Below, in pieces: positions 1 through 9,789 of a DNA stretch of 9,789 nucleotides. The first letter of the stretch is position 1, and the number at the start of each line of letters is the position of its first letter. Origin of the DNA: Candidatus Thorarchaeota archaeon (GTDB taxonomy: Archaea; Asgardarchaeota; Heimdallarchaeia; Hodarchaeales; Hodarchaeaceae); NCBI GenBank assembly GCA_048882505.1, contig JBHLRO010000043.1, positions 1 through 9,789 on the forward strand, written 5' to 3'. A model generated the notes under the pieces. It had not been told where the DNA came from. It searched no databases and saw only the letters and a program-made list of their open reading frames with translations. A program made the position numbers and the translations under genes.

Positions 1-446
1 TGGATATTAACGAGATTAAGAATCAATTGCAGGTATGTTTCTCTTGTGGGACGTGTAGCGGATCCTGTCCCATATTCCGAGTGAATCCAGAAAAGAATCC
101 GCGAAGGTTTATACGGGCGGTATTAGACTCAAGCAATTCCGATATATCAGTGTTGGAAAACTTCGAACCTCTCTGGCTATGTACGACATGCTATGCATGC
201 GAAGACCGGTGTCCTCAAGGGATTAACATCACAACAATGCTTGTAAAACTAAAAAATATAGCTGCTAGACACGGATACGTTCCTGAGTCAGTGAAAGCGG
301 AATTAGAAACAATTATAGCAAACGGGACTACATCTCCCCCTGGTAAGAGTATTTTGATGCGCCGCAAAAAGCTCAGTCTCCCAGATCTTCCTCAACCCGA
401 TCTCCCAGCTATCCAGAAGCTGATCCATCTTACATTAGATGACTAG
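1..446 (+). CDS. hdrC: Heterodisulfide reductase subunit C-like 2x[4Fe-4S] protein (5' end at or beyond the window edge)
   Basis: Two ferredoxin-type motifs, CFSCGTCSGSCP and LWLCTTCYACEDRCPQG, lie directly upstream of an hdrB-like gene. The frame is open back to the window start (GAT at 3-5: DINEIKNQLQVC...), so the TTG at 27 is probably not the true start. The TG at 1-2 could be the end of a start codon. Confidence 0.88.
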   Translation, partial: DINEIKNQLQVCFSCGTCSGSCPIFRVNPEKNPRRFIRAVLDSSNSDISVLENFEPLWLCTTCYACEDRCPQGINITTMLVKLKNIAARHGYVPESVKAELETIIANGTTSPPGKSILMRRKKLSLPDLPQPDLPAIQKLIHLTLDD

Positions 447-458
447 AGAAGATGCCAA

Positions 459-1427
459 ATGTCAGAATCAAATGGTAGATATGCTCTCTTTCTGGGGTGT
501 ACGATACCCTATAAGCTCCCACAGTTGGAAGCGGCGACTCGTTTCGTCATGGAAAAGCTAGGGTTAGAATTCGTGGACCTTCCATTCGGATGTTGTCCCG
601 ATCCAAATGGTATTCATTCCTATAGTGAAGATACCTGGTACACGTTAGCTACGCGTAATCTGGCCCTTGCTGAAGACCAAGGACTAGATATTATTACCTT
701 GTGTAACGGCTGTTATGAAACTCTCCACTATGTAAACCAGAAACTTAAGAACGACCCAAAGAAGCTTGCAAAGATCAATAGTTTGCTTGCAGAAGTGAAT
801 CAGGAATATAAAGCAAGCATTTCTGTCATCCATCTCCATGAATTTCTCCACGAAAAGATCGGATATGATAAACTCAGTCAAATGGTTGTTAATCCTCTGG
901 CAAACTTGCGGTTATCCGTCCATTATGGCTGTCACGCATTACGACCCCAGAGTATTGGCCAACCAGAAAACGCAGAAGCACCCCAATGGTTATGGGAATT
1001 TGTAGAAAACGTCATCCAAGCGGAACCCATTCATTACGTGGATGAAACATTATGTTGCGGAGCAGGTATTCGCGAAATGGATCAAGCGGCATCATTTGAC
1101 ATCACTAAACATAAGATTGTGCAAATGGAGACAGCAGGAGCAAATGCGATCACCGTTCCTTGTCCCACGTGCTTTCTGCAATATGATGGAAGTCAGAAGC
1201 TCATTCTAAGGGATGAATCGGTGGGAACACAGATTGTGGGCACGCCAACATTCTATTTCACGGAACTACTAGCGCTCGCGATGGGGGCGGACCCAAAAGC
1301 AATAGGCATTAATTATCATCTGATGAAACCGGAACAAGGATTACTAAAATCCTCAGAATCCACCTCTGTGGAAACCTCCCCAAAAGAAATCATAACAGTA
1401 ACGACGGGATCTAATCCGAATTCATGA
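459..1427 (+). CDS. hdrB: Heterodisulfide reductase subunit B-like protein (two CCG domains)
   Basis: HdrB cysteine motifs are present in the expected order: LFLGCTIP, GCCPDP, TLCNGC, HYGCH, LCCGAG, VPCPTC. It starts 12 nt after the hdrC stop. Confidence 0.92.
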   Translation: MSESNGRYALFLGCTIPYKLPQLEAATRFVMEKLGLEFVDLPFGCCPDPNGIHSYSEDTWYTLATRNLALAEDQGLDIITLCNGCYETLHYVNQKLKNDPKKLAKINSLLAEVNQEYKASISVIHLHEFLHEKIGYDKLSQMVVNPLANLRLSVHYGCHALRPQSIGQPENAEAPQWLWEFVENVIQAEPIHYVDETLCCGAGIREMDQAASFDITKHKIVQMETAGANAITVPCPTCFLQYDGSQKLILRDESVGTQIVGTPTFYFTELLALAMGADPKAIGINYHLMKPEQGLLKSSESTSVETSPKEIITVTTGSNPNS

Positions 1428-1653
1428 GCAAAACAAAGCCTTGATATATTCTGCGATAAAACGGATATAGCAAGACCCTCTTAAATTCTCCACTTGAGAG
1501 ATGCTACCGATAGATAACTGAAGTGGGGTTGTATTATTTGTTCAGTTCTCACTTTTAAGCGATTTGATCTAGGATCATTTGCAGGAACATTAAGGATTGG
1601 CTCCAAAGGGCGAAAAGAACGAAAAGCTCCCAGAATTATCCTGAGAACAGCTA

Positions 1654-2232
1654 TTAATGTTGAATCCAATGATCCAGAGTAGTTGAATATTGATCAGAAA
1701 TGGATTCATGCGTAAAAGCCTGTCTATATTTCTTTTCTAATGCAAGTAACTCCCTCTTTCTCCACAATCCGCCTCCATAGCCCTGTAGGTCTCCAGTGCT
1801 GCTGATTACGCGGTGGCACGGAATGAGAATTCCGATGTTATTGTCTCCGTTTGCTCTTCCAACTGCTCTAACTGCTGCATCGTTCCCGATTTTTTTTGCG
1901 ATATCATTGTAACTTCTGGTTTCCCCGTATGGTATCGAAAGCAATTGAGCCCAGACGGACATCTGAAAAGGAGTTCCTCGCACGTCCAAGGGGATGGAGA
2001 ATGTGTTACGTAACCCATCGAAATACTCGTTTAGTTCTTCCTGCAGGTTCTGTAATATAGGTGAAGAACCATGGATCAGCGGCATCTTATATCGAGACTG
2101 CATCCTAGAAATGATATTGTTGAGGCTTTTGCGGTCTAAAAATTCAAGGAGACAACAGCCTTTGGATGTAACCCCTCCAATTAAATTTCCCATCCTGCTT
2201 CGGAGAATTTGCCAAGTTATTTTTTCCTTCAT
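1654..2232 (-). CDS. ogt: Methylated-DNA--protein-cysteine methyltransferase (Ogt/AdaB-type O6-alkylguanine alkyltransferase)
   Basis: Active-site motif IPCHRV (Cys139). Also GTPFQMSVW, IPYGETRSY, the arginine finger VRAVG and GYGGGLWRKRELLALE. The N-terminal domain (GCCLLEFLDR) resembles the C-terminal half of bacterial Ada proteins. Confidence 0.95.
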   Translation of the reverse strand: MKEKITWQILRSRMGNLIGGVTSKGCCLLEFLDRKSLNNIISRMQSRYKMPLIHGSSPILQNLQEELNEYFDGLRNTFSIPLDVRGTPFQMSVWAQLLSIPYGETRSYNDIAKKIGNDAAVRAVGRANGDNNIGILIPCHRVISSTGDLQGYGGGLWRKRELLALEKKYRQAFTHESISDQYSTTLDHWIQH

Positions 2233-2778
2233 TTAAATTCCTCTCGGTGAAACACCGTATTCTTTTGAAAATGCGTAGATAAAGCCGTTTACTGAGCTAA
2301 ATCCAACTTGATTCGAGACTTCTTGAACTGAATTTCCTTGTTGGAGCAATATTCTTGCATATGATAATCGAACCTTGCGATGATAAGCCATAGGACTGAT
2401 TTTATGCCTGGATTTGAAATAACGTCTGATTGTAGTAATTTCTGTCCCTGTTAATTTCTCCAATTCCCGCTCCGTAATTTTTCTTGTCTGATTGGTCCTC
2501 ATGAATGCAAGAACTCGTTTAAGCCATTTTGGCTCAACATTAGGGAAAAATTCAGATTTACACCTTTTACATCCCCTATAATTATTCGCTATCGCTTCTT
2601 CACGAGTAGCGTAGAAGGTAACGTTCTTTGGTAATGGAGATTTTGCCTTACATGACGGTAAACAATAAATTTTTGTTGTTTTCACAGCAACCCAGAATTT
2701 CCCATCATAAGTTCCGTCACAGGCTTTTGCGATCCGAAACATGTCTTCAAATGCTAAACCATTTACTTTTTTCATCAT
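2233..2778 (-). CDS. adaA: AdaA-type methylphosphotriester-DNA methyltransferase / AraC-family regulator
   Basis: Ada Zn-binding domain (DGKFWVAVKTTKIYCLPSC...YRGCKRC) with C39/C43/C70/C73, the same spacing as E. coli Ada C38/C42/C69/C72. It is followed by a full two-HTH AraC domain (...VGFSSVNGFIYAFSKEYGVSP). Its TAA abuts the ogt ATG. The start could be 2778 or 2775 (ATGATG). Confidence 0.92.
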   Translation of the reverse strand: MMKKVNGLAFEDMFRIAKACDGTYDGKFWVAVKTTKIYCLPSCKAKSPLPKNVTFYATREEAIANNYRGCKRCKSEFFPNVEPKWLKRVLAFMRTNQTRKITERELEKLTGTEITTIRRYFKSRHKISPMAYHRKVRLSYARILLQQGNSVQEVSNQVGFSSVNGFIYAFSKEYGVSPRGI

Positions 2779-2798
2779 AAACAGCCAATGAATTAATG

Positions 2799-2812
2799 TT
2801 TATAAATTTTTC
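2799..2812 (-). promoter_or_regulatory. Archaeal-type BRE-TATA promoter for adaA-ogt, probably leaderless
   Basis: The minus strand reads GAAAAA-TTTATAAA. The TATA box ends 20 nt before the ATG at 2778, which puts the predicted start site at about the start codon. Confidence 0.65.
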
Positions 2813-3206
2813 AATCCTATTCAGGCTGAGGCCTATCAAATTTCGGGCAGGGAAATTTTACATCTCATATTTCTGATTTCAAATTTAGTCCTCTTTTGGA
2901 ACAGTTAATAAAAAACATATAGTTCATAAAAAGGGTATGTATAACTATTAATGATCTTAAAGAGCTTCTAAACCCTGACTGAATATTATCTTTGTTTTAA
3001 CAGATAAAAGACGCCTTAAGATTTCTCAAGTTGTCCTACATAGTCAGGATTATTAAAACAACAATGTATGATGTCCAACTGAAAAACATATGGAAATCTA
3101 GCAAAAAGCCTTTTAGCTCCGATAAAGCGTAGGAATAGTCTCAAGAAAAGATCAAGGTGAGAAGTAATGATAAATGAGTTGTAAAATGATGATTTCAGGT
3201 GAAGAA

Positions 3207-3221
3207 CGAAAAGTATAATTA
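3207..3221 (+). promoter_or_regulatory. Archaeal-type BRE-TATA promoter for the larA-like gene
   Basis: CGAAAA-G-TATAATTA lies about 45 nt upstream of ATG 3264. No TTGACA-like -35 hexamer is present 17 nt upstream of the TATAAT (that position reads GATTTC). Confidence 0.55.
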
Positions 3222-3252
3222 GAACAGACCGTTATTATTTTCAGAATTTGGT

Positions 3253-3257
3253 AGGTG
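3253..3257 (+). promoter_or_regulatory. Ribosome-binding site (AGGTG)
   Basis: AGGTG lies 6 nt before ATG 3264. This suggests the GTG at 3255 used by the ORF track is part of the SD sequence rather than the start codon. Confidence 0.5.
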
Positions 3258-3263
3258 TTCTCT

Positions 3264-4625
3264 ATGTCGTGGAAAGATATAACTCTCTTGTACGGGGATG
3301 AACCTATTTCTCAGTTTATACCTGCGGATTTAAATGTACACGTTTTGGAACCACCAGGGCTTCCTGAACCAGGTCGAACTTTCACTGACCTTGAAACGCG
3401 ATTTGAGGATATTATCGCTAATCCTGTCGATTCCAAAGCTCTTGAAGAGCTTGTAAAAACTCGGGAGCGATCCAGAGTCATGATTCTGGTAGATGATGCA
3501 ACTCGACCAAATAAACATACCAAAATTCTACTTCCGCTACTTTTTAAGAAATTGATGGAGGATTACAAAGTAAAAAAGGATGATATCAGATTATTGATCG
3601 CTAGTGGATCGCATAGCCCTCCCGCTGATGATTTATTAGAGAATAAGATCCTTGGACCAACAATTTATGCCGCATGGAAAGATCATGTCATGATTCACAA
3701 ACAGGCTGAAAATTGTCGCAATTTAGGGATATCAACCTTAGGAACCCCGATTTGGGTAAACATAGATGTTCTAGAATCAGGATTAATAATAGCGGTGACA
3801 GACAGTGAGTATCATTACTTCGCTGGTGTAGCAGGCACCGTCAAGCAATTTTTTCCAGGGTGTGCAGGTAAGGAGACAATCGCTCGTAATCATCCTCAGA
3901 TGTTTGATAAGGTTCAAGGATTTAAACCTGAATGCCGTCTCGGCAATACCGCAGGAAATCCAGTCATTCAAGACATGATCCAGATGGCGCAGCTTACTAA
4001 AAAAATGGTTCCAGTCTTCTGCATCGATGCCGTGATGAGCGGCGAGGAGATTGTGATGTTGGATGCAGGAGATATTAATTCTCTGCATGAATTACGCCGA
4101 GAAGCGCTAAAACCCCTCCGGGTGGTAGAAGTCGACAGGCCAGCAGATTTGGTGATCGTATCCACAGGTCCTCTAAGCATAAACCTATATCAAGGAGGAA
4201 AGGGGTTCCATGCTGGCTGGAATGCCGTAAAAGAAGGTGGAGATATCTTACTCTTGGCTCGTTGCGACTTAGGGCATGGTAGCCAAAACTTCTATGACAC
4301 AATGCGGGAAATAAATGGAATGGGATTAGATGCCGCACTTTCTAAGGTTATTGAAACCAAGTGTAGTATTGAGACTTTCAAAATAGGCAACCAGAAGGTA
4401 GTTGATTTAATCCGGATCCTCAAAAGGGCTACATGTCATATGATCACAGAAATGGATAAAGAGCAAGTAGAGGATGTTTTTCGAATTAAGTATGTACCCA
4501 GATCAGGAGATGTCCAGACAAGCCTCCGTGCATGGATAGAAAACTTCCGAGAACAGAAAAATCGTGATCCATTGGTGTATGTGTTGCCCGACGCGGGCAA
4601 CTATATTGATGTAAAATCCAGATAG
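3264..4625 (+). CDS. larA: LarA-family nickel-pincer-dependent lactate racemase / alpha-hydroxy-acid epimerase homologue (DUF2088 domain)
   Basis: Motifs ILVDDATRP, IASGSH, EYHYFAGVAGTVKQFFPGCAG, TIARNH and NLYQGGKG match the LarA pattern (D72/R75, H108, H174/K184, H200, K298 in Lactiplantibacillus plantarum numbering). The ORF track start is 3255 (GTG); ATG 3264 is preferred. Substrate is unknown. Confidence 0.85.
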   Translation: MSWKDITLLYGDEPISQFIPADLNVHVLEPPGLPEPGRTFTDLETRFEDIIANPVDSKALEELVKTRERSRVMILVDDATRPNKHTKILLPLLFKKLMEDYKVKKDDIRLLIASGSHSPPADDLLENKILGPTIYAAWKDHVMIHKQAENCRNLGISTLGTPIWVNIDVLESGLIIAVTDSEYHYFAGVAGTVKQFFPGCAGKETIARNHPQMFDKVQGFKPECRLGNTAGNPVIQDMIQMAQLTKKMVPVFCIDAVMSGEEIVMLDAGDINSLHELRREALKPLRVVEVDRPADLVIVSTGPLSINLYQGGKGFHAGWNAVKEGGDILLLARCDLGHGSQNFYDTMREINGMGLDAALSKVIETKCSIETFKIGNQKVVDLIRILKRATCHMITEMDKEQVEDVFRIKYVPRSGDVQTSLRAWIENFREQKNRDPLVYVLPDAGNYIDVKSR

Positions 4626-4628
4626 TCA

Positions 4629-4668
4629 TTTCCCATCTTCCTTTCTTTTTTCTTTTTTCGTTCCCTTA
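4629..4668 (+). terminator. Pyrimidine/oligo-T tract, candidate archaeal-type terminator
   Basis: TTCCCATCTTCCTTTCTTTTTTCTTTTTTCGTTCCCTT directly follows the larA stop, with two T6 runs and no GC hairpin. Confidence 0.5.
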
Positions 4669-4711
4669 CATTCTTGAACAGGCATAGGAAGGGATTAATT
4701 GGAGAGCCCTT

Positions 4712-5296
4712 ATGTCCAACTTCGATATTATGTATCAAGGTACTCCGTTGTGGGATATTGGCCGACCCCAACAATTTCTCGTCGACCTAGCAAGCAAAAA
4801 CTCAATAAAAGATCCAATCTTGGATGTAGGCTGTGGTACGGGAGAAAATACATTATACCTAGCCACCCTGGGATATAACGTAATTGGTATTGATTCGGCA
4901 CCAACTGCAATCGAAAAGGCAAATCGAAAAGCGCAGAATAGGGGAATTAACGCAAATTTCAAAGTTTTCGATGTGTTTAAACTAGATCAGCTTGGAAAAC
5001 GTTTCAATACCGTGATTGACTCAGGACTCTTTCACATATTTTCAGATAGCGAAAGAATCCTTTTTACCAACCAGCTCGCAAAGGTAATTGATTCTGCAGG
5101 AAACTACTATTTCATATGTTTCAGCGAACATGAGCCAGCAGGATGGGGACCAAGACGGGTAACTCAATCGGAAATTTATTCGGTTTTTTCAGCTACGGGT
5201 GTATGGAGGGTCAGATCAATTGATGCGGCTTCTTTCGAGACTAATCGTCCTCAAGGGAAGGTAGCAGCATGGTTTGCATCCATCCTGCGTCTATAG
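4712..5296 (+). CDS. Class I SAM-dependent small-molecule methyltransferase (TPMT-like / mycobacterial Rv0560c-like)
   Basis: Motif I ILDVGCGTG, motif II VIGIDSAPTAI, RFNTVIDSGLFH, and the N-terminal WDIGRPQ signature. GGAG at 4701-4704 precedes the ATG. Confidence 0.85.
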   Translation: MSNFDIMYQGTPLWDIGRPQQFLVDLASKNSIKDPILDVGCGTGENTLYLATLGYNVIGIDSAPTAIEKANRKAQNRGINANFKVFDVFKLDQLGKRFNTVIDSGLFHIFSDSERILFTNQLAKVIDSAGNYYFICFSEHEPAGWGPRRVTQSEIYSVFSATGVWRVRSIDAASFETNRPQGKVAAWFASILRL

Positions 5297-5610
5297 GGCT
5301 AGATTGATGCAAATCAAGCTTGAAATGTACCCATAGAATCTCAATGGGAGTAATTTTTTCCCCGTTTCTGATCCATGAAGTGAATACAAGCCGAGTACGA
5401 CCCGTCACTGGACTTTCTTTTCCTGAATATTGATTTCAGGTGCCAAAAGCGACCAATGAACGGGGTAATGAAGAAAATCCAAAAGAAAACGTGTTTAGCC
5501 GAAATGGTGCTCGCTGAACGTAGTATTGTGGATTACTTGAATAATATCGGGTTCATATTGGTGATAACTACTTAGACTTTTCTCTCCACCTTAACATGAA
5601 CCCTTCTGTA

Positions 5611-5627
5611 TTAATCGTAACGATTAA
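5611..5627. repeat. Perfect 17-bp palindrome, operator-like
   Basis: TTAATCGT-A-ACGATTAA: 8-bp arms around a 1-nt centre, in the intergenic region upstream of the MFS gene. Confidence 0.7.
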
Positions 5628-5794
5628 CGTAAAATTCGGATTTATTCTCTAGACATAGTTAAAAATCATCAGTCGCTGGAGTACTAGAACTTCCTGAAAT
5701 TACTTACTCCAACTGAAACTATGATTACTTACTTAGTTGACAAAAACGTGGCTAGGTTGTAATCATTTTCACCTGCCAGTTGTGCTGAGAATTT

Positions 5795-5807
5795 CAAAGG
5801 TATATAT
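5795..5807 (+). promoter_or_regulatory. Candidate archaeal BRE-TATA promoter for the MFS gene
   Basis: CAAAGG-TATATAT ends 38 nt before the TTG start at 5846. Confidence 0.45.
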
Positions 5808-5845
5808 CCCTCCATTTCCCCCTCATTAACGTCGGACGTGGCACC

Positions 5846-7261
5846 TTGGCGACACATACGGCTACTTCGCATACAGCTAATGCCTATTTGCTTTTCTGGG
5901 CCGGTCAAGTCGTGTCCTTACTTGGTTCAAATATCGTCCAATTTGTAATCATTTGGTGGATTGTTGTAACGTATCTAAATCCAATCTACTTAGCTGTCGC
6001 CTACCTATTAGGAATTGGAGTTCAAGTAGTGTTCATGCCAATTGCTGGAGTATTCGTTGACCGATGGAATAGGAAGTGGATTCTGGGGGTCTCAGATGGA
6101 TTTCAAGCATTAGGTGCCATAGGTTTAATTGGCCTGTTTTTGTTTCGAAATATCCTCACGGGACTTCAACTGTACTGGGGAGTCGTATACGTAATCACTC
6201 TTCGTGGAATTACCGCCTCATTTCATGCACCTGCAGCTGACGCCATCATTCCGCTAATGGTGCCGCGAAGCTATCTTAATAGACTTAATGGAGTTAAATT
6301 CTTCTTTGTAGGCGCAGTGAATATACTCGGACCGGCTCTTGGGGCTATATTCTACGAACTTGCCCCAATTGAGGTTATCATCTGGGTAGATGTCGTAACA
6401 TTTCTTATGGCGATTATACCTCTGTACTTCATAATCATACCCGAACCGCCTCCTAACGGAAATCAGGTTCATGACAAGATTGGTTTTTCGGCAGTAATCC
6501 ATGAATTCCAGGAGGGTATCCACATTCTGCGATCTAACGATGGACTCCTTCCTCTGCTCCTCGTATTTACGGCCATTACCTTATTACAAATACCTATTGC
6601 TGTTCTTGGCCCCATATTCGTATATTCCACTCATTCTGGAACTGTGACTGATTTAGCTTTTGTAGTCATTCTTAGTCAGGTTGGAATGCTGATTTCAGGC
6701 GTGTTTTTGCTGGTTAAGAAAGATTGGAACAAAAAATCGACCGCTATTGTTCTTGCGTTCTATTTTCAGCTATTGGGATACTTTATTCAAGTAATTACTC
6801 CATTGGGAGTCTTTTGGTGGATGGGAATTGGAGCACTAGTTTTTGGATCTATGATTCCCATAGTAGATTCTACATTTAGGACTATACTTCAAACCACGGT
6901 TCCGCCCGATCTACAAGGACGAGTATCGGCTATTGCCGCCTCTGTGGCGGGAGCAACCTTACCTTTTGGTATGCTGGCTTCGGGGCCCCTCGCCGAAATT
7001 TTTGGAACTGTTAACCTTTTCCTCCTTGCAATATTTGCCAGTTTTATTGTAATTACGCTAGCTTGGCTCTTCACGGGGCTTAGTAATCTTGACAAGACGA
7101 TAAGCTGGGAACCAGAAGCCCCTCTTCCAACAGCAGCTGGCCATAGTCCTTCCATCAAAAGCGAGTTGAAAAGATCCATTTCCGAAATATCTGGCTCTGG
7201 TATCGGCCAGCCAATGATGGGATTTACAAAATTGGATGAAGATCTGAAAACCGGAGAATAA
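5846..7261 (+). CDS. MFS transporter, DHA3/MefA-like efflux family
   Basis: About 12 hydrophobic segments, N-terminal LLFWAGQVVSLLGS, MFS motif A GVFVDRWNRKWI, and late-loop QTTVPPDLQGRV. TTG start; the exact start is uncertain. Confidence 0.9.
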   Translation: MATHTATSHTANAYLLFWAGQVVSLLGSNIVQFVIIWWIVVTYLNPIYLAVAYLLGIGVQVVFMPIAGVFVDRWNRKWILGVSDGFQALGAIGLIGLFLFRNILTGLQLYWGVVYVITLRGITASFHAPAADAIIPLMVPRSYLNRLNGVKFFFVGAVNILGPALGAIFYELAPIEVIIWVDVVTFLMAIIPLYFIIIPEPPPNGNQVHDKIGFSAVIHEFQEGIHILRSNDGLLPLLLVFTAITLLQIPIAVLGPIFVYSTHSGTVTDLAFVVILSQVGMLISGVFLLVKKDWNKKSTAIVLAFYFQLLGYFIQVITPLGVFWWMGIGALVFGSMIPIVDSTFRTILQTTVPPDLQGRVSAIAASVAGATLPFGMLASGPLAEIFGTVNLFLLAIFASFIVITLAWLFTGLSNLDKTISWEPEAPLPTAAGHSPSIKSELKRSISEISGSGIGQPMMGFTKLDEDLKTGE

Positions 7262-7278
7262 CCAAACCGCTGGTCCTG

Positions 7279-8142
7279 TCACGCAGGAATGGCAGTCTTG
7301 GTGAAAGCGTCAGCTGCAAAAAGCGCGCTGCCATCGATATCAAGTCGGATAGCTCTTGCAATTTGCCTTACCTCTTCAGGAGATTTACCTGTGAGGTGGT
7401 TTTTGGCATTGTATTTTTGAATGATTTTTATTCCGTGTATATCTAAGGCAACCCGATTTGAACTCGCCAAGATTCTTTGTGGTTCTTCTTTTCTACCATT
7501 ACCTGGCCCCCCAGTGACGAAGACCTTACGGGCGTCCATGATACAAAGATGTGGCGAATAACCAAGATTCAAATCTGCGACCTTTTCCGGAACCCGGAAG
7601 CTCATATGCATCCGTATTCTTTGTTTTCTTTCCATTAAACCCACTGCCAGTTTCAAGGCACCAGTGAACTGGCCAATAAAATGGGTTTTACAGCAAGGTA
7701 GAAGAATAATTCTCGAATTGGGATCCAAAATCTGCCTAGGAAGTTTAACGGATTTCATATATTTGGCCCCCATTGATTTTAGATCCAGTTTTTCATATAT
7801 ATAGTCCTTTTCCGTAATAAGAGGAATATCAAGTTCCTCCAGTTTACCATTCATCCGTGAGGTGATTAACTTCCTAGTATCCACCTGTAAGGTGGAAGAT
7901 TCAATAACAGTAACGTCAGAGGTAATTTTTTTCAAAAGCATCAGAATAGTTATGAAGAAACCTAAATCAGTTGACGCTGGAAATGGATCCCCAGTATTGA
8001 AGTTTGGCTTTACAAGAACATGATCCCTAGGATTGATGAAATTTGTCAATCCACCCAAAGGATCAAGACATGATAATATCGTAGTTCTAAGAGACTGATC
8101 TGTGTGTAAAACCTCGGATACCAAGGGATTAGGAGGCGCCAT
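7279..8142 (-). CDS. DUF362-domain protein (no fused ferredoxin domain)
   Basis: Family-typical motifs HVLVKPN, VTVIES, LPCCKTH...TGALK, LCIMDA and ASSNRVALD. Confidence 0.8.
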   Translation of the reverse strand: MAPPNPLVSEVLHTDQSLRTTILSCLDPLGGLTNFINPRDHVLVKPNFNTGDPFPASTDLGFFITILMLLKKITSDVTVIESSTLQVDTRKLITSRMNGKLEELDIPLITEKDYIYEKLDLKSMGAKYMKSVKLPRQILDPNSRIILLPCCKTHFIGQFTGALKLAVGLMERKQRIRMHMSFRVPEKVADLNLGYSPHLCIMDARKVFVTGGPGNGRKEEPQRILASSNRVALDIHGIKIIQKYNAKNHLTGKSPEEVRQIARAIRLDIDGSALFAADAFTKTAIPA

Positions 8143-8519
8143 ATCAACAAGCCCTGTGTTTTATTGAACCTAACAATGACAACAAAAACATTCAGTTAAC
8201 AATTATGAGGGATAAAGATGATTTGACCTAAGATTGACTTTTTTCTAATCTCCTTATGACTGATTGCAGAATTATCCCAATATGATGTATACTGTGTCTG
8301 AAAGAGTCCCTTTATACAAGTCTTGTCATTCCCCACCTCGAGGACTCCTATATTCAGTTCCAGACTATTCTTTGGCGAAATTATTTACAGAATAATATGG
8401 TTTGGAATCGGATAAAAAAACTGGAATGAGATCGAAAATCCAGCTATGAGGAAAACGTCTTCATTAACAGATCAGGAGTTCTTCTTAACGATTGTTTAGT
8501 TTCGTGATATGATGAAAAA

Positions 8520-8540
8520 TTGTATGCATATTGTATGCAA
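8520..8540. promoter_or_regulatory. Tandem quasi-palindromic operator-like site upstream of the sdh operon
   Basis: TTGTATGCAT-A-TTGTATGCAA: a 9-bp direct repeat in which each unit is nearly palindromic, flanked by AAA and TTT, about 105 nt before ATG 8647. Confidence 0.5.
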
Positions 8541-8646
8541 TTTATCAAACAAAATCCTCATATTATTCAGCATTTATTGGAGATTTAAGTCACTACAACA
8601 ACTTTAAGATATTGTTTCTTACTAATAACACTTAATATTCGATATA

Positions 8647-9093
8647 ATGACAGGAAGTGTTTGTAATATGACTTCTGAAAGTGGAATTACCCGATTTGTA
8701 CCCAAACATGAAGCACGTTCCGCTCAATGGTGGGTTCTCCAACGTATTAGCGGGGCATTTACTTTTGTTCTGTTAGGGCTCCACATGGTTCTCAATCATT
8801 TTCTCAATCCTTTTGTTGAAGCCCAGTACCCAGATATTGTAAGGGATTATGGGATAGCGTCTTTTCGAGTTGTCCAGATTAAGATGGCGAATCCGCTTTA
8901 CTTAATCGTTTCCTTCCTCTTTGTTATTTTCTTACTGTTTCACGCCTTTAACGGTGTGAGAACAGTATGGCTTGATATAATACCAGGGGATGCATCAAGG
9001 CGATTCATTGGATGGGCTGTTGTCATTCTCATCGTGGTGCTTACTCTATTCACTTTATGGTTAAACTTTAGTGTGGCCCAGCTGCCCGGATAG
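8647..9093 (+). CDS. sdhD: Succinate dehydrogenase/fumarate reductase hydrophobic membrane anchor (SdhD-like)
   Basis: WWVLQRISG...LGLH, FRVVQIKMANP and LFHAFNGVRTVWLD; three hydrophobic segments. Alternative start ATG 8668. Confidence 0.8.
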   Translation: MTGSVCNMTSESGITRFVPKHEARSAQWWVLQRISGAFTFVLLGLHMVLNHFLNPFVEAQYPDIVRDYGIASFRVVQIKMANPLYLIVSFLFVIFLLFHAFNGVRTVWLDIIPGDASRRFIGWAVVILIVVLTLFTLWLNFSVAQLPG

Positions 9094-9098
9094 GTGAT
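9092..9098 (+). promoter_or_regulatory. Ribosome-binding site AGGTGAT for sdhC
   Basis: It overlaps the sdhD TAG and lies 5 nt before ATG 9104. It is complementary to the 16S 3' end sequence AUCACCU. Confidence 0.65.
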
Positions 9099-9103
9099 AT
9101 TTC

Positions 9104-9613
9104 ATGACAGGAAGTACTGAAAAAAGAATTCATGATACACAAGTTGCAGGTGGGAGTAAGCCGAGGAACTTTTTGAATTGGTTTAAACCGTGGGATCAGG
9201 GGATAGGAATGTGGGCTTGGTTCATCCAAAGGATGACGGGACTTTTCCTTGTATTATATCTGTTCGCCCATTTTGGGGTCCTATCAACACTACTGATCGA
9301 TCCAACGGGTGAGCTCTTCGATACCTTGACTATAAGCATGAATACACCATTCCTCCATGGATTACCGGAAATCGGCCCTTTTCCATTGGACAAGGCCACT
9401 TCCTTCGGATTCATCGTAGATTTTGTATTGATTGGCGCAATGATCTATCATGGATTCAACGGGATCAGGGTAACTATGTTTGACTTTTATCCGGAATCCG
9501 TTCGAGCCCAGAAGCGAATTTTCTGGATTTTAACGATATTAGGCATCCTAACTTGGATAATTGCGATGCTATTAATCCTTATTGTTCCAGAAATAGTTTT
9601 ACCAGGAGGTTGA
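9104..9613 (+). CDS. sdhC: Succinate dehydrogenase cytochrome b subunit (SdhC-like)
   Basis: GMWAWFIQRMTGLFLVLYLFAH and IYHGFNGIRVTMFDF; three hydrophobic segments. Confidence 0.85.
   Translation: MTGSTEKRIHDTQVAGGSKPRNFLNWFKPWDQGIGMWAWFIQRMTGLFLVLYLFAHFGVLSTLLIDPTGELFDTLTISMNTPFLHGLPEIGPFPLDKATSFGFIVDFVLIGAMIYHGFNGIRVTMFDFYPESVRAQKRIFWILTILGILTWIIAMLLILIVPEIVLPGG
9604..9610 (+). promoter_or_regulatory. Ribosome-binding site AGGAGGT for sdhA
   Basis: It lies within the last sdhC codons, 9 nt before ATG 9620. Confidence 0.65.
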
Positions 9614-9619
9614 ACAAGA

Positions 9620-9789
9620 ATGACAAACAAAAGGCATTCGCTGCTTGTGATAGGCTCAGGACTCGCTGGAATGCGGGCTGCCGTTGCTGCGCGTGAGCAG
9701 GGTATAGATGTCGCTGTTATTTCGATTTGTATGCCGGTTCGAAGTCATTCGGTTGCGGCTCAAGGCGGGATCAATGCCCCTCTTGGAAA
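9620..9789 (+). CDS. sdhA: Succinate dehydrogenase/fumarate reductase flavoprotein subunit, N-terminus only (3'-truncated; absent from the ORF track)
   Basis: My translation is MTNKRHSLLVIGSGLAGMRAAVAAREQGIDVAVISICMPVRSHSVAAQGGINAPLG. It contains the dinucleotide-binding GxGxxG and the RSHSVAAQGG motif with the covalent-FAD His (codon 9746-9748). Confidence 0.95.
   Translation, partial: MTNKRHSLLVIGSGLAGMRAAVAAREQGIDVAVISICMPVRSHSVAAQGGINAPLG

Follow-up and report, generated by a model that had tools for sequence, protein, structure and literature searches.

Introduction

Can a regulatory circuit that depends on bacterial RNA polymerase be carried by an archaeon, and if so, what would it do there? 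This question is raised by a two-gene locus in Candidatus Thorarchaeota archaeon (GTDB order Hodarchaeales, Asgardarchaeota; assembly GCA_048882505.1), on contig JBHLRO010000043.1. The stretch analysed here, hereafter the window, comprises positions 1 to 9,789 of the forward strand and represents the entire contig. Its minus strand carries adaA, for a protein with the architecture of the Ada methylation sensor, followed by ogt, for an O6-alkylguanine-DNA alkyltransferase.

Among bacterial circuits the Ada response is a textbook case, and its activation step needs contacts with the sigma70 and alpha subunits of RNA polymerase. A 2023 review gives the adaptive response for bacteria and Aspergillus only, and no paper describing or testing an archaeal Ada or AdaA protein was found within the literature searched; automatic annotation already names such proteins, for example an AdaA in a Heimdallarchaeota metagenome-assembled genome (MAG). 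The initial annotation of the locus was to be refuted if the pair proved widespread and already characterised in archaea; the pair turns out to be common in some Asgard lineages, but this literature held no characterisation of it. In this study we propose that the chromosomal adaA-ogt pair is probably a methylation-activated, self-inducing operon of its Hodarchaeales host, a proposal drawn from comparative sequence analysis.

Results

Domain architecture of AdaA

The adaA gene (2233-2778, minus strand) is an open reading frame (ORF) of 181 codons, whose product combines an Ada-type zinc methyl-acceptor domain with four cysteines (Cys4) and an AraC-type double helix-turn-helix (HTH) unit. Pfam matches were obtained to Ada_Zn_binding (2e-24) and, over residues 110-179, to HTH_18 (6e-16). 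In the alignment with the structures of the N-terminal part of E. coli Ada (1wpk and 1zgw), residue n of AdaA (P0001) pairs with Ada residue n-1, so that C39, C43, C70 and C73 correspond to C38, C42, C69 and C72 of Ada. This offset identifies the four cysteines as the zinc ligands and C39 as the methyl acceptor, and AdaA is thus predicted, by inference from Ada, to transfer methyl groups from DNA methylphosphotriesters onto C39. The AraC-family structures 3mn2 and 3oio cover residues 83-179, which indicates that both HTH motifs are present, and the full double HTH is retained across all Asgard AdaA clades. Both readings of the initial annotation, namely a complete set of zinc ligands including the methyl acceptor and a complete two-HTH AraC domain, are supported by these structural alignments and, for the latter, by the HTH_18 match.

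A conserved Ada-box-like operator precedes adaA

In an AdaA tree built with a quick method and sampled by similarity to the query, the Asgard proteins form at least three clades, among which a bacterial clade is nested. Clade A comprises the query, its counterpart in the independent MAG of Candidatus Heimdallarchaeota archaeon TM2S.58 (G016) and proteins named Hodarchaeales; clade B comprises most of the genus and a Loki-type group; and clade C comprises three genomes of the genus and both cultured Loki species.

A Gibbs motif search of 22 Asgard adaA upstream regions returned one box in all of them, with the consensus AAAATTACTTGCCCGAATTTCGGCACA and a constant orientation. The box spans about 22-27 bp and is located upstream of the TATA box in each of the 21 Asgard adaA promoters for which sufficient upstream DNA is available. 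In the window it reads AAATTTCCCTGCCCGAAATTTGATAGG (2832-2858, minus strand), with its 3' end 25 nt upstream of the TATA box. Matrices built by leaving out one clade at a time chose the identical site in 21 of 21 regions, and none of 300 shuffles equalled the box score in 14 regions. No shuffle did so for clade A, for bacteria of the Fibrobacteres-Chlorobi-Bacteroidetes (FCB) group, for most of clade B or for two of the three f5 regions. The clade C box is statistically weaker in this shuffle test, yet its position is constant. Moreover, the box is conserved between AdaA clades that share only 40-50% protein identity and whose surrounding intergenic DNA is unalignable. Its layout, an A/T-rich part followed about 5-6 nt further on by a GC-containing part, resembles the A box and B box of E. 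coli (PMC4437013).

Within each genome the box is also close to unique. A matrix scan of the 4.3-Mb source genome gave the operator 25.4 bits and found only two sites of 20 bits or more, and pattern scans of nine relatives found one box per genome, at the adaA promoter. An additional match in one relative (G014) falls inside a major facilitator superfamily gene. The scans of the whole genome and of the nine relatives detected no alkA, alkB or aidB target that would indicate a wider Ada regulon. Taken together, the conservation of the operator argues strongly for the predicted binding of AdaA to its own promoter in these archaea, and makes a role confined to repair unlikely.

The only other strong site of the source genome lies on contig C2 (C2:127433-127459, plus strand; locus L131:2434-2460), scores 27.4 bits and is identical at 25 of 27 positions to the clade C adaA operator of two genomes of the same genus (G013 and G001). 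It is found 76 nt 5' of a gene for a pyridoxal phosphate-dependent decarboxylase of 480 amino acids, which is followed by an N6/N4 DNA methylase gene. Conservation gave this second site no support: no orthologue of the decarboxylase occurs in the genus, and the box is absent from its two orthologues in another Asgard family.

The operator stands before an archaeal core promoter

The minus strand 5' of adaA reads GAAAAA-TTTATAAA, then 20 nt, then ATGATG. The TATA box TTTATAAA (2799-2806, minus strand) thus stands 20 nt 5' of the adaA ATG (2778) and is identical in G016; the purine-rich GAAAAA, as read from the sequence, lies immediately 5' of it (2807-2812, minus strand) and resembles a transcription factor B recognition element (BRE). 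A promoter was considered leaderless when the TATA box would lie about 22-27 nt 5' of a transcription start site at or beside the start codon. Perfect TATA matches occur at 2 among 469 positions of this intergenic strand, which puts the chance of a match at leaderless distance at about 2%, and the distance between TATA box and ATG is 20-24 nt at 13 of the 21 Asgard loci. By its sequence, the adaA core promoter is a predicted archaeal TATA/BRE promoter at leaderless distance from the ATG, and the leaderless spacing of BRE and TATA box noted in the initial annotation recurs in orthologues.

The spacing between box and TATA box takes two values, 3 nt in clade B and 23-25 nt in clades A and C, the window included, and the difference between them equals two helical turns. 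In the window, the operator covers neither the BRE, the TATA box nor the start site, and thus occupies the position expected of an activator.

The closest named non-Asgard relatives of the pair are adaA-ogt loci of FCB bacteria, from uncultured Chitinophagales, Bacteroidota and Ignavibacteriae (Ignavibacteriota) MAGs, with AdaA proteins 49-52% identical to the query. In the Ignavibacteriae MAG about 0.2 kb separates the two genes, which lie side by side in the Chitinophagales and Bacteroidota MAGs. In all three relatives (n=3) the same, TTCCTTGCACGAAATTCGGTAGC-like operator is found upstream of adaA as in Asgard archaea, but at -57 to -59 from the ATG and with no TATA box at leaderless distance, whereas in the archaeon the box stands upstream of a TATA box. 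Since the box is common to both groups and the TATA box has leaderless geometry, the regulator appears to have retained its operator while acquiring a core promoter of archaeal type. The Bacillota relatives (34-39% identity) differ in their upstream box, which in several cases is of type GACCATAAGAGCAAGAATGAGG, and in most of them an additional gene of about 0.85-0.9 kb separates adaA from ogt (L028-L102).

Farther from adaA, the 476-bp spacer that separates it from a larA-like gene contains, in its distal part (2900-3254), no ORF of at least 60 amino acids and no Rfam match; this part is weakly conserved in comparison with G016, except for roughly its final 100 bp, next to the LarA-like gene.

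The ogt gene and its coupling to adaA

The ogt gene (adaB-like; 1654-2232, minus strand) encodes a protein of 192 amino acids (P0002) with an intact PCHRV active site. Pfam matches are to DNA_binding_1 (1.5e-32) and, weakly, to Methyltransf_1N, and residues 137-142 form the motif IPCHRV. Its closest solved relatives are M. tuberculosis OGT (1e-36) and then the C-terminal part of E. coli Ada (2e-24), with archaeal structures at 1e-16 or weaker; by sequence, the adaA-linked Ogt is thus much nearer to bacterial OGTs than to the solved archaeal ones.

On the minus strand, the adaA stop codon TAA (2235-2233) directly abuts the ogt start codon ATG (2232-2230), so that the junction reads TAAATG (2230-2235), as initially described. 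Such stop-start contact suggests that translation of the two genes is coupled. A Shine-Dalgarno-like GAGAGG (2240-2245, minus strand) was also read within the 3' end of adaA, 7 nt 5' of the ogt ATG, and a consensus scan identified a terminator-like hairpin with a T-rich tract directly past the ogt stop codon (1611-1648, minus strand). At nearly all Asgard loci with enough sequence, ogt follows adaA on the same strand with a gap of -14 to +73 nt. The layout is indeed that of B. subtilis adaA-adaB, as had been claimed, with a separate alkyltransferase gene directly 3' on the same strand.

For most members of the genus, this query detected no Ogt gene besides the adaA-linked ogt. The source genome (G000) has in addition a stand-alone ogt (C4:85064-85603, minus strand; 180 amino acids, PCHRV) with orthologues only in G016 and G021, as well as an alkyltransferase-like protein of 109 amino acids on contig C27 (L020:1426-1755, minus strand), in which the active cysteine is replaced by tryptophan (PWHRV). 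In other Heimdall families Ogt stands alone, in agreement with the expectation that archaea typically possess a stand-alone enzyme.

The host is an archaeon

The interest of the locus had been made conditional on an archaeal host, and an archaeal host is what we found. The source genome (4.3 Mb in 83 contigs, estimated contamination 3.7%) encodes TBP and an archaeal 16S rRNA gene, and the closest proteins carry the database names Heimdallarchaeota or Hodarchaeales. A 24.6-kb contig of G016 shares the gene order of the whole window, with flanking proteins 88-99% identical, and in a closed genome (G009) adaA-ogt lies near a Ras-family GTPase gene. TBP and 16S rRNA, the synteny with G016, and the occurrence of the pair in single-contig and cultured Asgard genomes practically exclude contamination.

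The neighbouring genes of the window (3-1427, 3255-4625 and 7279-9613) encode HdrC/HdrB-like iron-sulfur and CCG proteins, a LarA-like protein, a DUF362 protein and two succinate dehydrogenase/fumarate reductase membrane subunits. G016 has conserved counterparts of all of them, and no connection with DNA repair is obvious for any; Rfam and tRNA scans gave no matches in the window. A single search of sequencing runs with positions 1500-3400 listed no RNA run that contains the sequence, a result that has no bearing on expression. An S-adenosylmethionine-dependent methyltransferase resembling TPMT/TehB is encoded 1.9 kb away, at 4712-5296. In G009 (L167, G009:C1:1036000-1052000), genes of the MtmB family, which are methylamine methyltransferase-like, flank adaA-ogt on both sides (5802-7178 and 8496-9881). 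From these gene neighbourhoods, it is conceivable that methyl-group metabolism is linked to endogenous alkylating agents.

Distribution and history of the pair

Homologues of adaA are present in 16 of the 21 genomes of the genus, single-contig genomes included, and Ada_Zn_binding occurs in 29 of 400 Asgard genomes, spread over four families. Exact protein look-up placed the adaA-ogt pair in the cultured Promethearchaeum syntrophicum and Lokiarchaeum ossiferum; the AdaA accessions are QEE16994.1 for strain MK-D1 of the former and UYP45831.1 for the latter. None of four model archaea used as controls had Ada_Zn_binding above the cut-off. One genome scored as adaA-negative (G017; L175, G017:C164:1-2080) has an ogt that starts 92 nt from a contig end and groups in the adaA-linked clade B; its adaA was probably lost to an assembly break, and the frequency in the genus is therefore probably higher than 16/21.

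AdaA is the sole HTH_18 protein and the sole Ada_Zn_binding protein of the source genome. Across the class, an AraC-type domain is found in 23 of 83 genomes, in one copy each and coinciding with adaA, the exception being a fragmented MAG with three hits (G023). The scarcity of AraC-family regulators in archaea, which had been put forward, is supported by these counts.

The Ogt tree repeats the AdaA clades, which indicates that adaA and ogt travel together, and the genomic context of the pair varies between clades. Within the syntenic window, a sliding identity profile against the sister genome G016 delimits a diverged cassette (about 1400-3150, unstranded) that contains both genes together with their promoter and about 370 bp of the spacer upstream. 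Synonymous divergence (dS) from G016 is 1.40 and 1.42 for adaA and ogt, as opposed to 0.08-0.50 for seven flanking genes, from which we infer that recombination exchanged the cassette for a distant allele at this site. The ratio of nonsynonymous to synonymous divergence (dN/dS) of both genes is 0.10-0.12, similar to the flanks; both are intact and under purifying selection.

The sensor had been presumed to be horizontally acquired. Its patchy distribution, bacterial nearest relatives and shared operator fit such an origin; the AdaA tree does not separate donor from recipient. Because the family is common in bacteria, transfer from bacteria to Asgard archaea is the more economical reading of the sequences.

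Discussion

A proposed self-inducing operon

Our analysis places an intact, selected AdaA downstream of a conserved operator and an archaeal core promoter, and we propose the following mechanism. AdaA would take methyl groups from DNA methylphosphotriesters onto C39, and, by analogy with E. coli Ada, this methylation would make the zinc site less negatively charged. In this methylated state, AdaA would then bind the operator, two or four helical turns 5' of the TATA box, and operator-bound AdaA could help TBP, TFB and RNA polymerase to assemble, giving more leaderless bicistronic adaA-ogt mRNA. From this messenger, ogt may be translated through coupling to adaA together with its own Shine-Dalgarno-like site, and the self-amplifying response would supply more of the single-use Ogt protein.

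A wider form of this proposal is that the same regulator-operator pair works in both prokaryotic domains, that the transfer between FCB bacteria and Asgard archaea preserved AdaA with its box and swapped only the core promoter, and that methylated AdaA activates TBP/TFB-dependent transcription from a helical-phase-locked site. This we advance tentatively, as something slightly short of an even chance on the sequences compared here.

We favour activation because of the position of the operator, the behaviour of the Ada systems studied so far and a eukaryotic precedent. In all studied Ada/AdaA systems, methylation raises DNA binding and activates transcription (PMC10779285, PMC4437013, PMC3439912). 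Furthermore, in Aspergillus fumigatus an AdaA-type protein drives an inducible response in a TBP-based eukaryote (O'Hanlon et al. 2012, PMC3439912). That such a regulator already works with TBP-type machinery tempers the surprise of finding adaA-ogt in an archaeon (PMC3439912).

Comparison with known systems

The components themselves are known; the novelty lies in the domain of the host, in how the promoter is wired and in the operator that is shared. In the B. subtilis adaA-adaB operon, described by Morohoshi et al. 1990 as cited in PMC10779285, the sensor/regulator and the alkyltransferase are likewise encoded by two adjacent genes, which in B. subtilis are co-transcribed, and Cys4 and PCHRV are intact in the archaeal pair. 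Compared with that operon, the present locus differs in its Asgard host, in a TATA/BRE core promoter at leaderless distance in place of a sigma-A promoter, and in having no alkA alongside.

With E. coli Ada (1ADN, 1U8B, 1ZGW, 1WPK), AdaA shares a zinc-Cys4 acceptor that aligns residue for residue and a bipartite operator. Unlike Ada, it has no fused C-terminal alkyltransferase domain and would find no sigma70 or C-terminal domain of the alpha subunit to contact, and no alkA/alkB/aidB regulon emerged from our box scans. Three of five DNA-contact residues are kept or conservatively replaced (R45, R71 and R118 of Ada correspond to K46, R72 and R119). The remaining two, the B-box contacts F114 and H115, are T115 and T116 in AdaA, in line with a differing B-box half of the operator, which is TGCCCGAA-like in the archaeon versus GCAA in the E. 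coli Ada box.

The methylphosphotriester (MPT) and alkylguanine (AGT) transferases of A. fumigatus and A. nidulans offer another parallel, being an AdaA-type protein of bacterial origin outside Bacteria, in a TBP-based apparatus, with AGT as a separate protein (PMC3439912). Unlike the archaeal pair, the fungal genes are not in an operon and belong to a eukaryote; their origin was placed in Firmicutes, in a study whose scope did not include Asgard genes (PMC3439912).

Within archaea, upstream activators offer a comparison. Ptr2 of Methanocaldococcus jannaschii, for example, is a bacterial-type DNA-binding protein that binds just 5' of the BRE/TATA element and is thought to recruit TBP or TFB. 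It belongs to the Lrp family and not to AraC/Ada, and its signal is not covalent methylation.

Points against activation, and alternatives

Several observations weigh against activation. Promoters that depend on an activator are frequently weak, yet the TATA box here matches the consensus perfectly. The clade B box, which ends 3 nt from the TATA box, would overlap the BRE and could equally block TFB. The two B-box contact residues replaced by threonine mean that the details of recognition differ from those of Ada. As the only Ogt found in most genomes of the genus, the adaA-linked enzyme cannot be silent in uninduced cells. Finally, activation by E. coli Ada proceeds by contacts with sigma70 and alpha, made in part by its C-terminal domain (PMC4437013), and these targets do not exist in archaea.

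Some of these same points lend themselves to the opposite sign. AdaA might bind the box as a repressor or negative autoregulator that limits the access of TFB and TBP, with alkylation relieving or strengthening the block; the operator would then be real, with regulation running in the reverse sense from bacteria. Repressors make up the majority of bacterial-type regulators characterised in archaea. A perfect TATA box should need no help, the clade B box abuts the TATA box across the BRE position, and basal expression must be substantial if the operon holds the only Ogt found in most of the genus; on these grounds a repressor or negative-feedback role is kept in consideration. The box of clades A and C, in contrast, leaves BRE, TATA box and start site free, as for an activator, and the two-helical-turn difference in spacing is what would be expected of a contact that depends on the helix face. 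Given also that methylation activates in every Ada/AdaA system studied (PMC10779285, PMC4437013, PMC3439912), we regard repression as unlikely, though it is the strongest competitor to methylation-activated induction.

Another alternative is that AdaA only repairs methylphosphotriesters by means of general DNA binding, the operon being constitutive and no circuit existing. The zinc domain would suffice for such repair, and the apparent regulon is the operon itself, with no alkA, alkB or aidB targets in the box scans. The double HTH, however, is complete in all clades, and a 22-27-bp promoter box that persists across clades of 40-50% identity amid unalignable surroundings, and that hardly recurs elsewhere in each genome, is difficult to account for unless AdaA binds its own promoter sequence-specifically. 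Purely reparative AdaA is thus more doubtful still than repression.

The last alternative, that the contig is bacterial DNA misbinned into an archaeal MAG and carries an ordinary adaAB, could draw on the 3.7% estimated contamination, on a contig of merely 9.8 kb and on nearest named non-Asgard relatives that are bacteria (49-52% identity), but is very improbable in view of the independent MAG from another isolate with the same gene order and 88-99% identity, the orthologous pairs in single-contig Asgard genomes with a Ras-family GTPase neighbour in G009, their presence in the cultured P. syntrophicum and L. ossiferum, and a promoter whose TATA-box geometry is unlike that before adaA in the bacterial relatives.

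Significance

A conserved and selected Asgard copy of AdaA, with a bacterial operator placed before an archaeal TATA promoter, constitutes a natural experiment in how a regulator survives passage between domains with different transcription machineries. The adaA-ogt operon may govern the main defence against O6-alkylguanine in most members of the genus, since its Ogt is the only one that this query found in their genomes. The presence of the pair in cultured P. syntrophicum and L. ossiferum makes the hypothesis of a methylation-activated operon directly testable. The operon would be the first candidate for an inducible alkylation response in archaea and, if the wider form of the proposal is true, a genuine adaptive response that alkylation induces in those archaea most closely related to eukaryotes.

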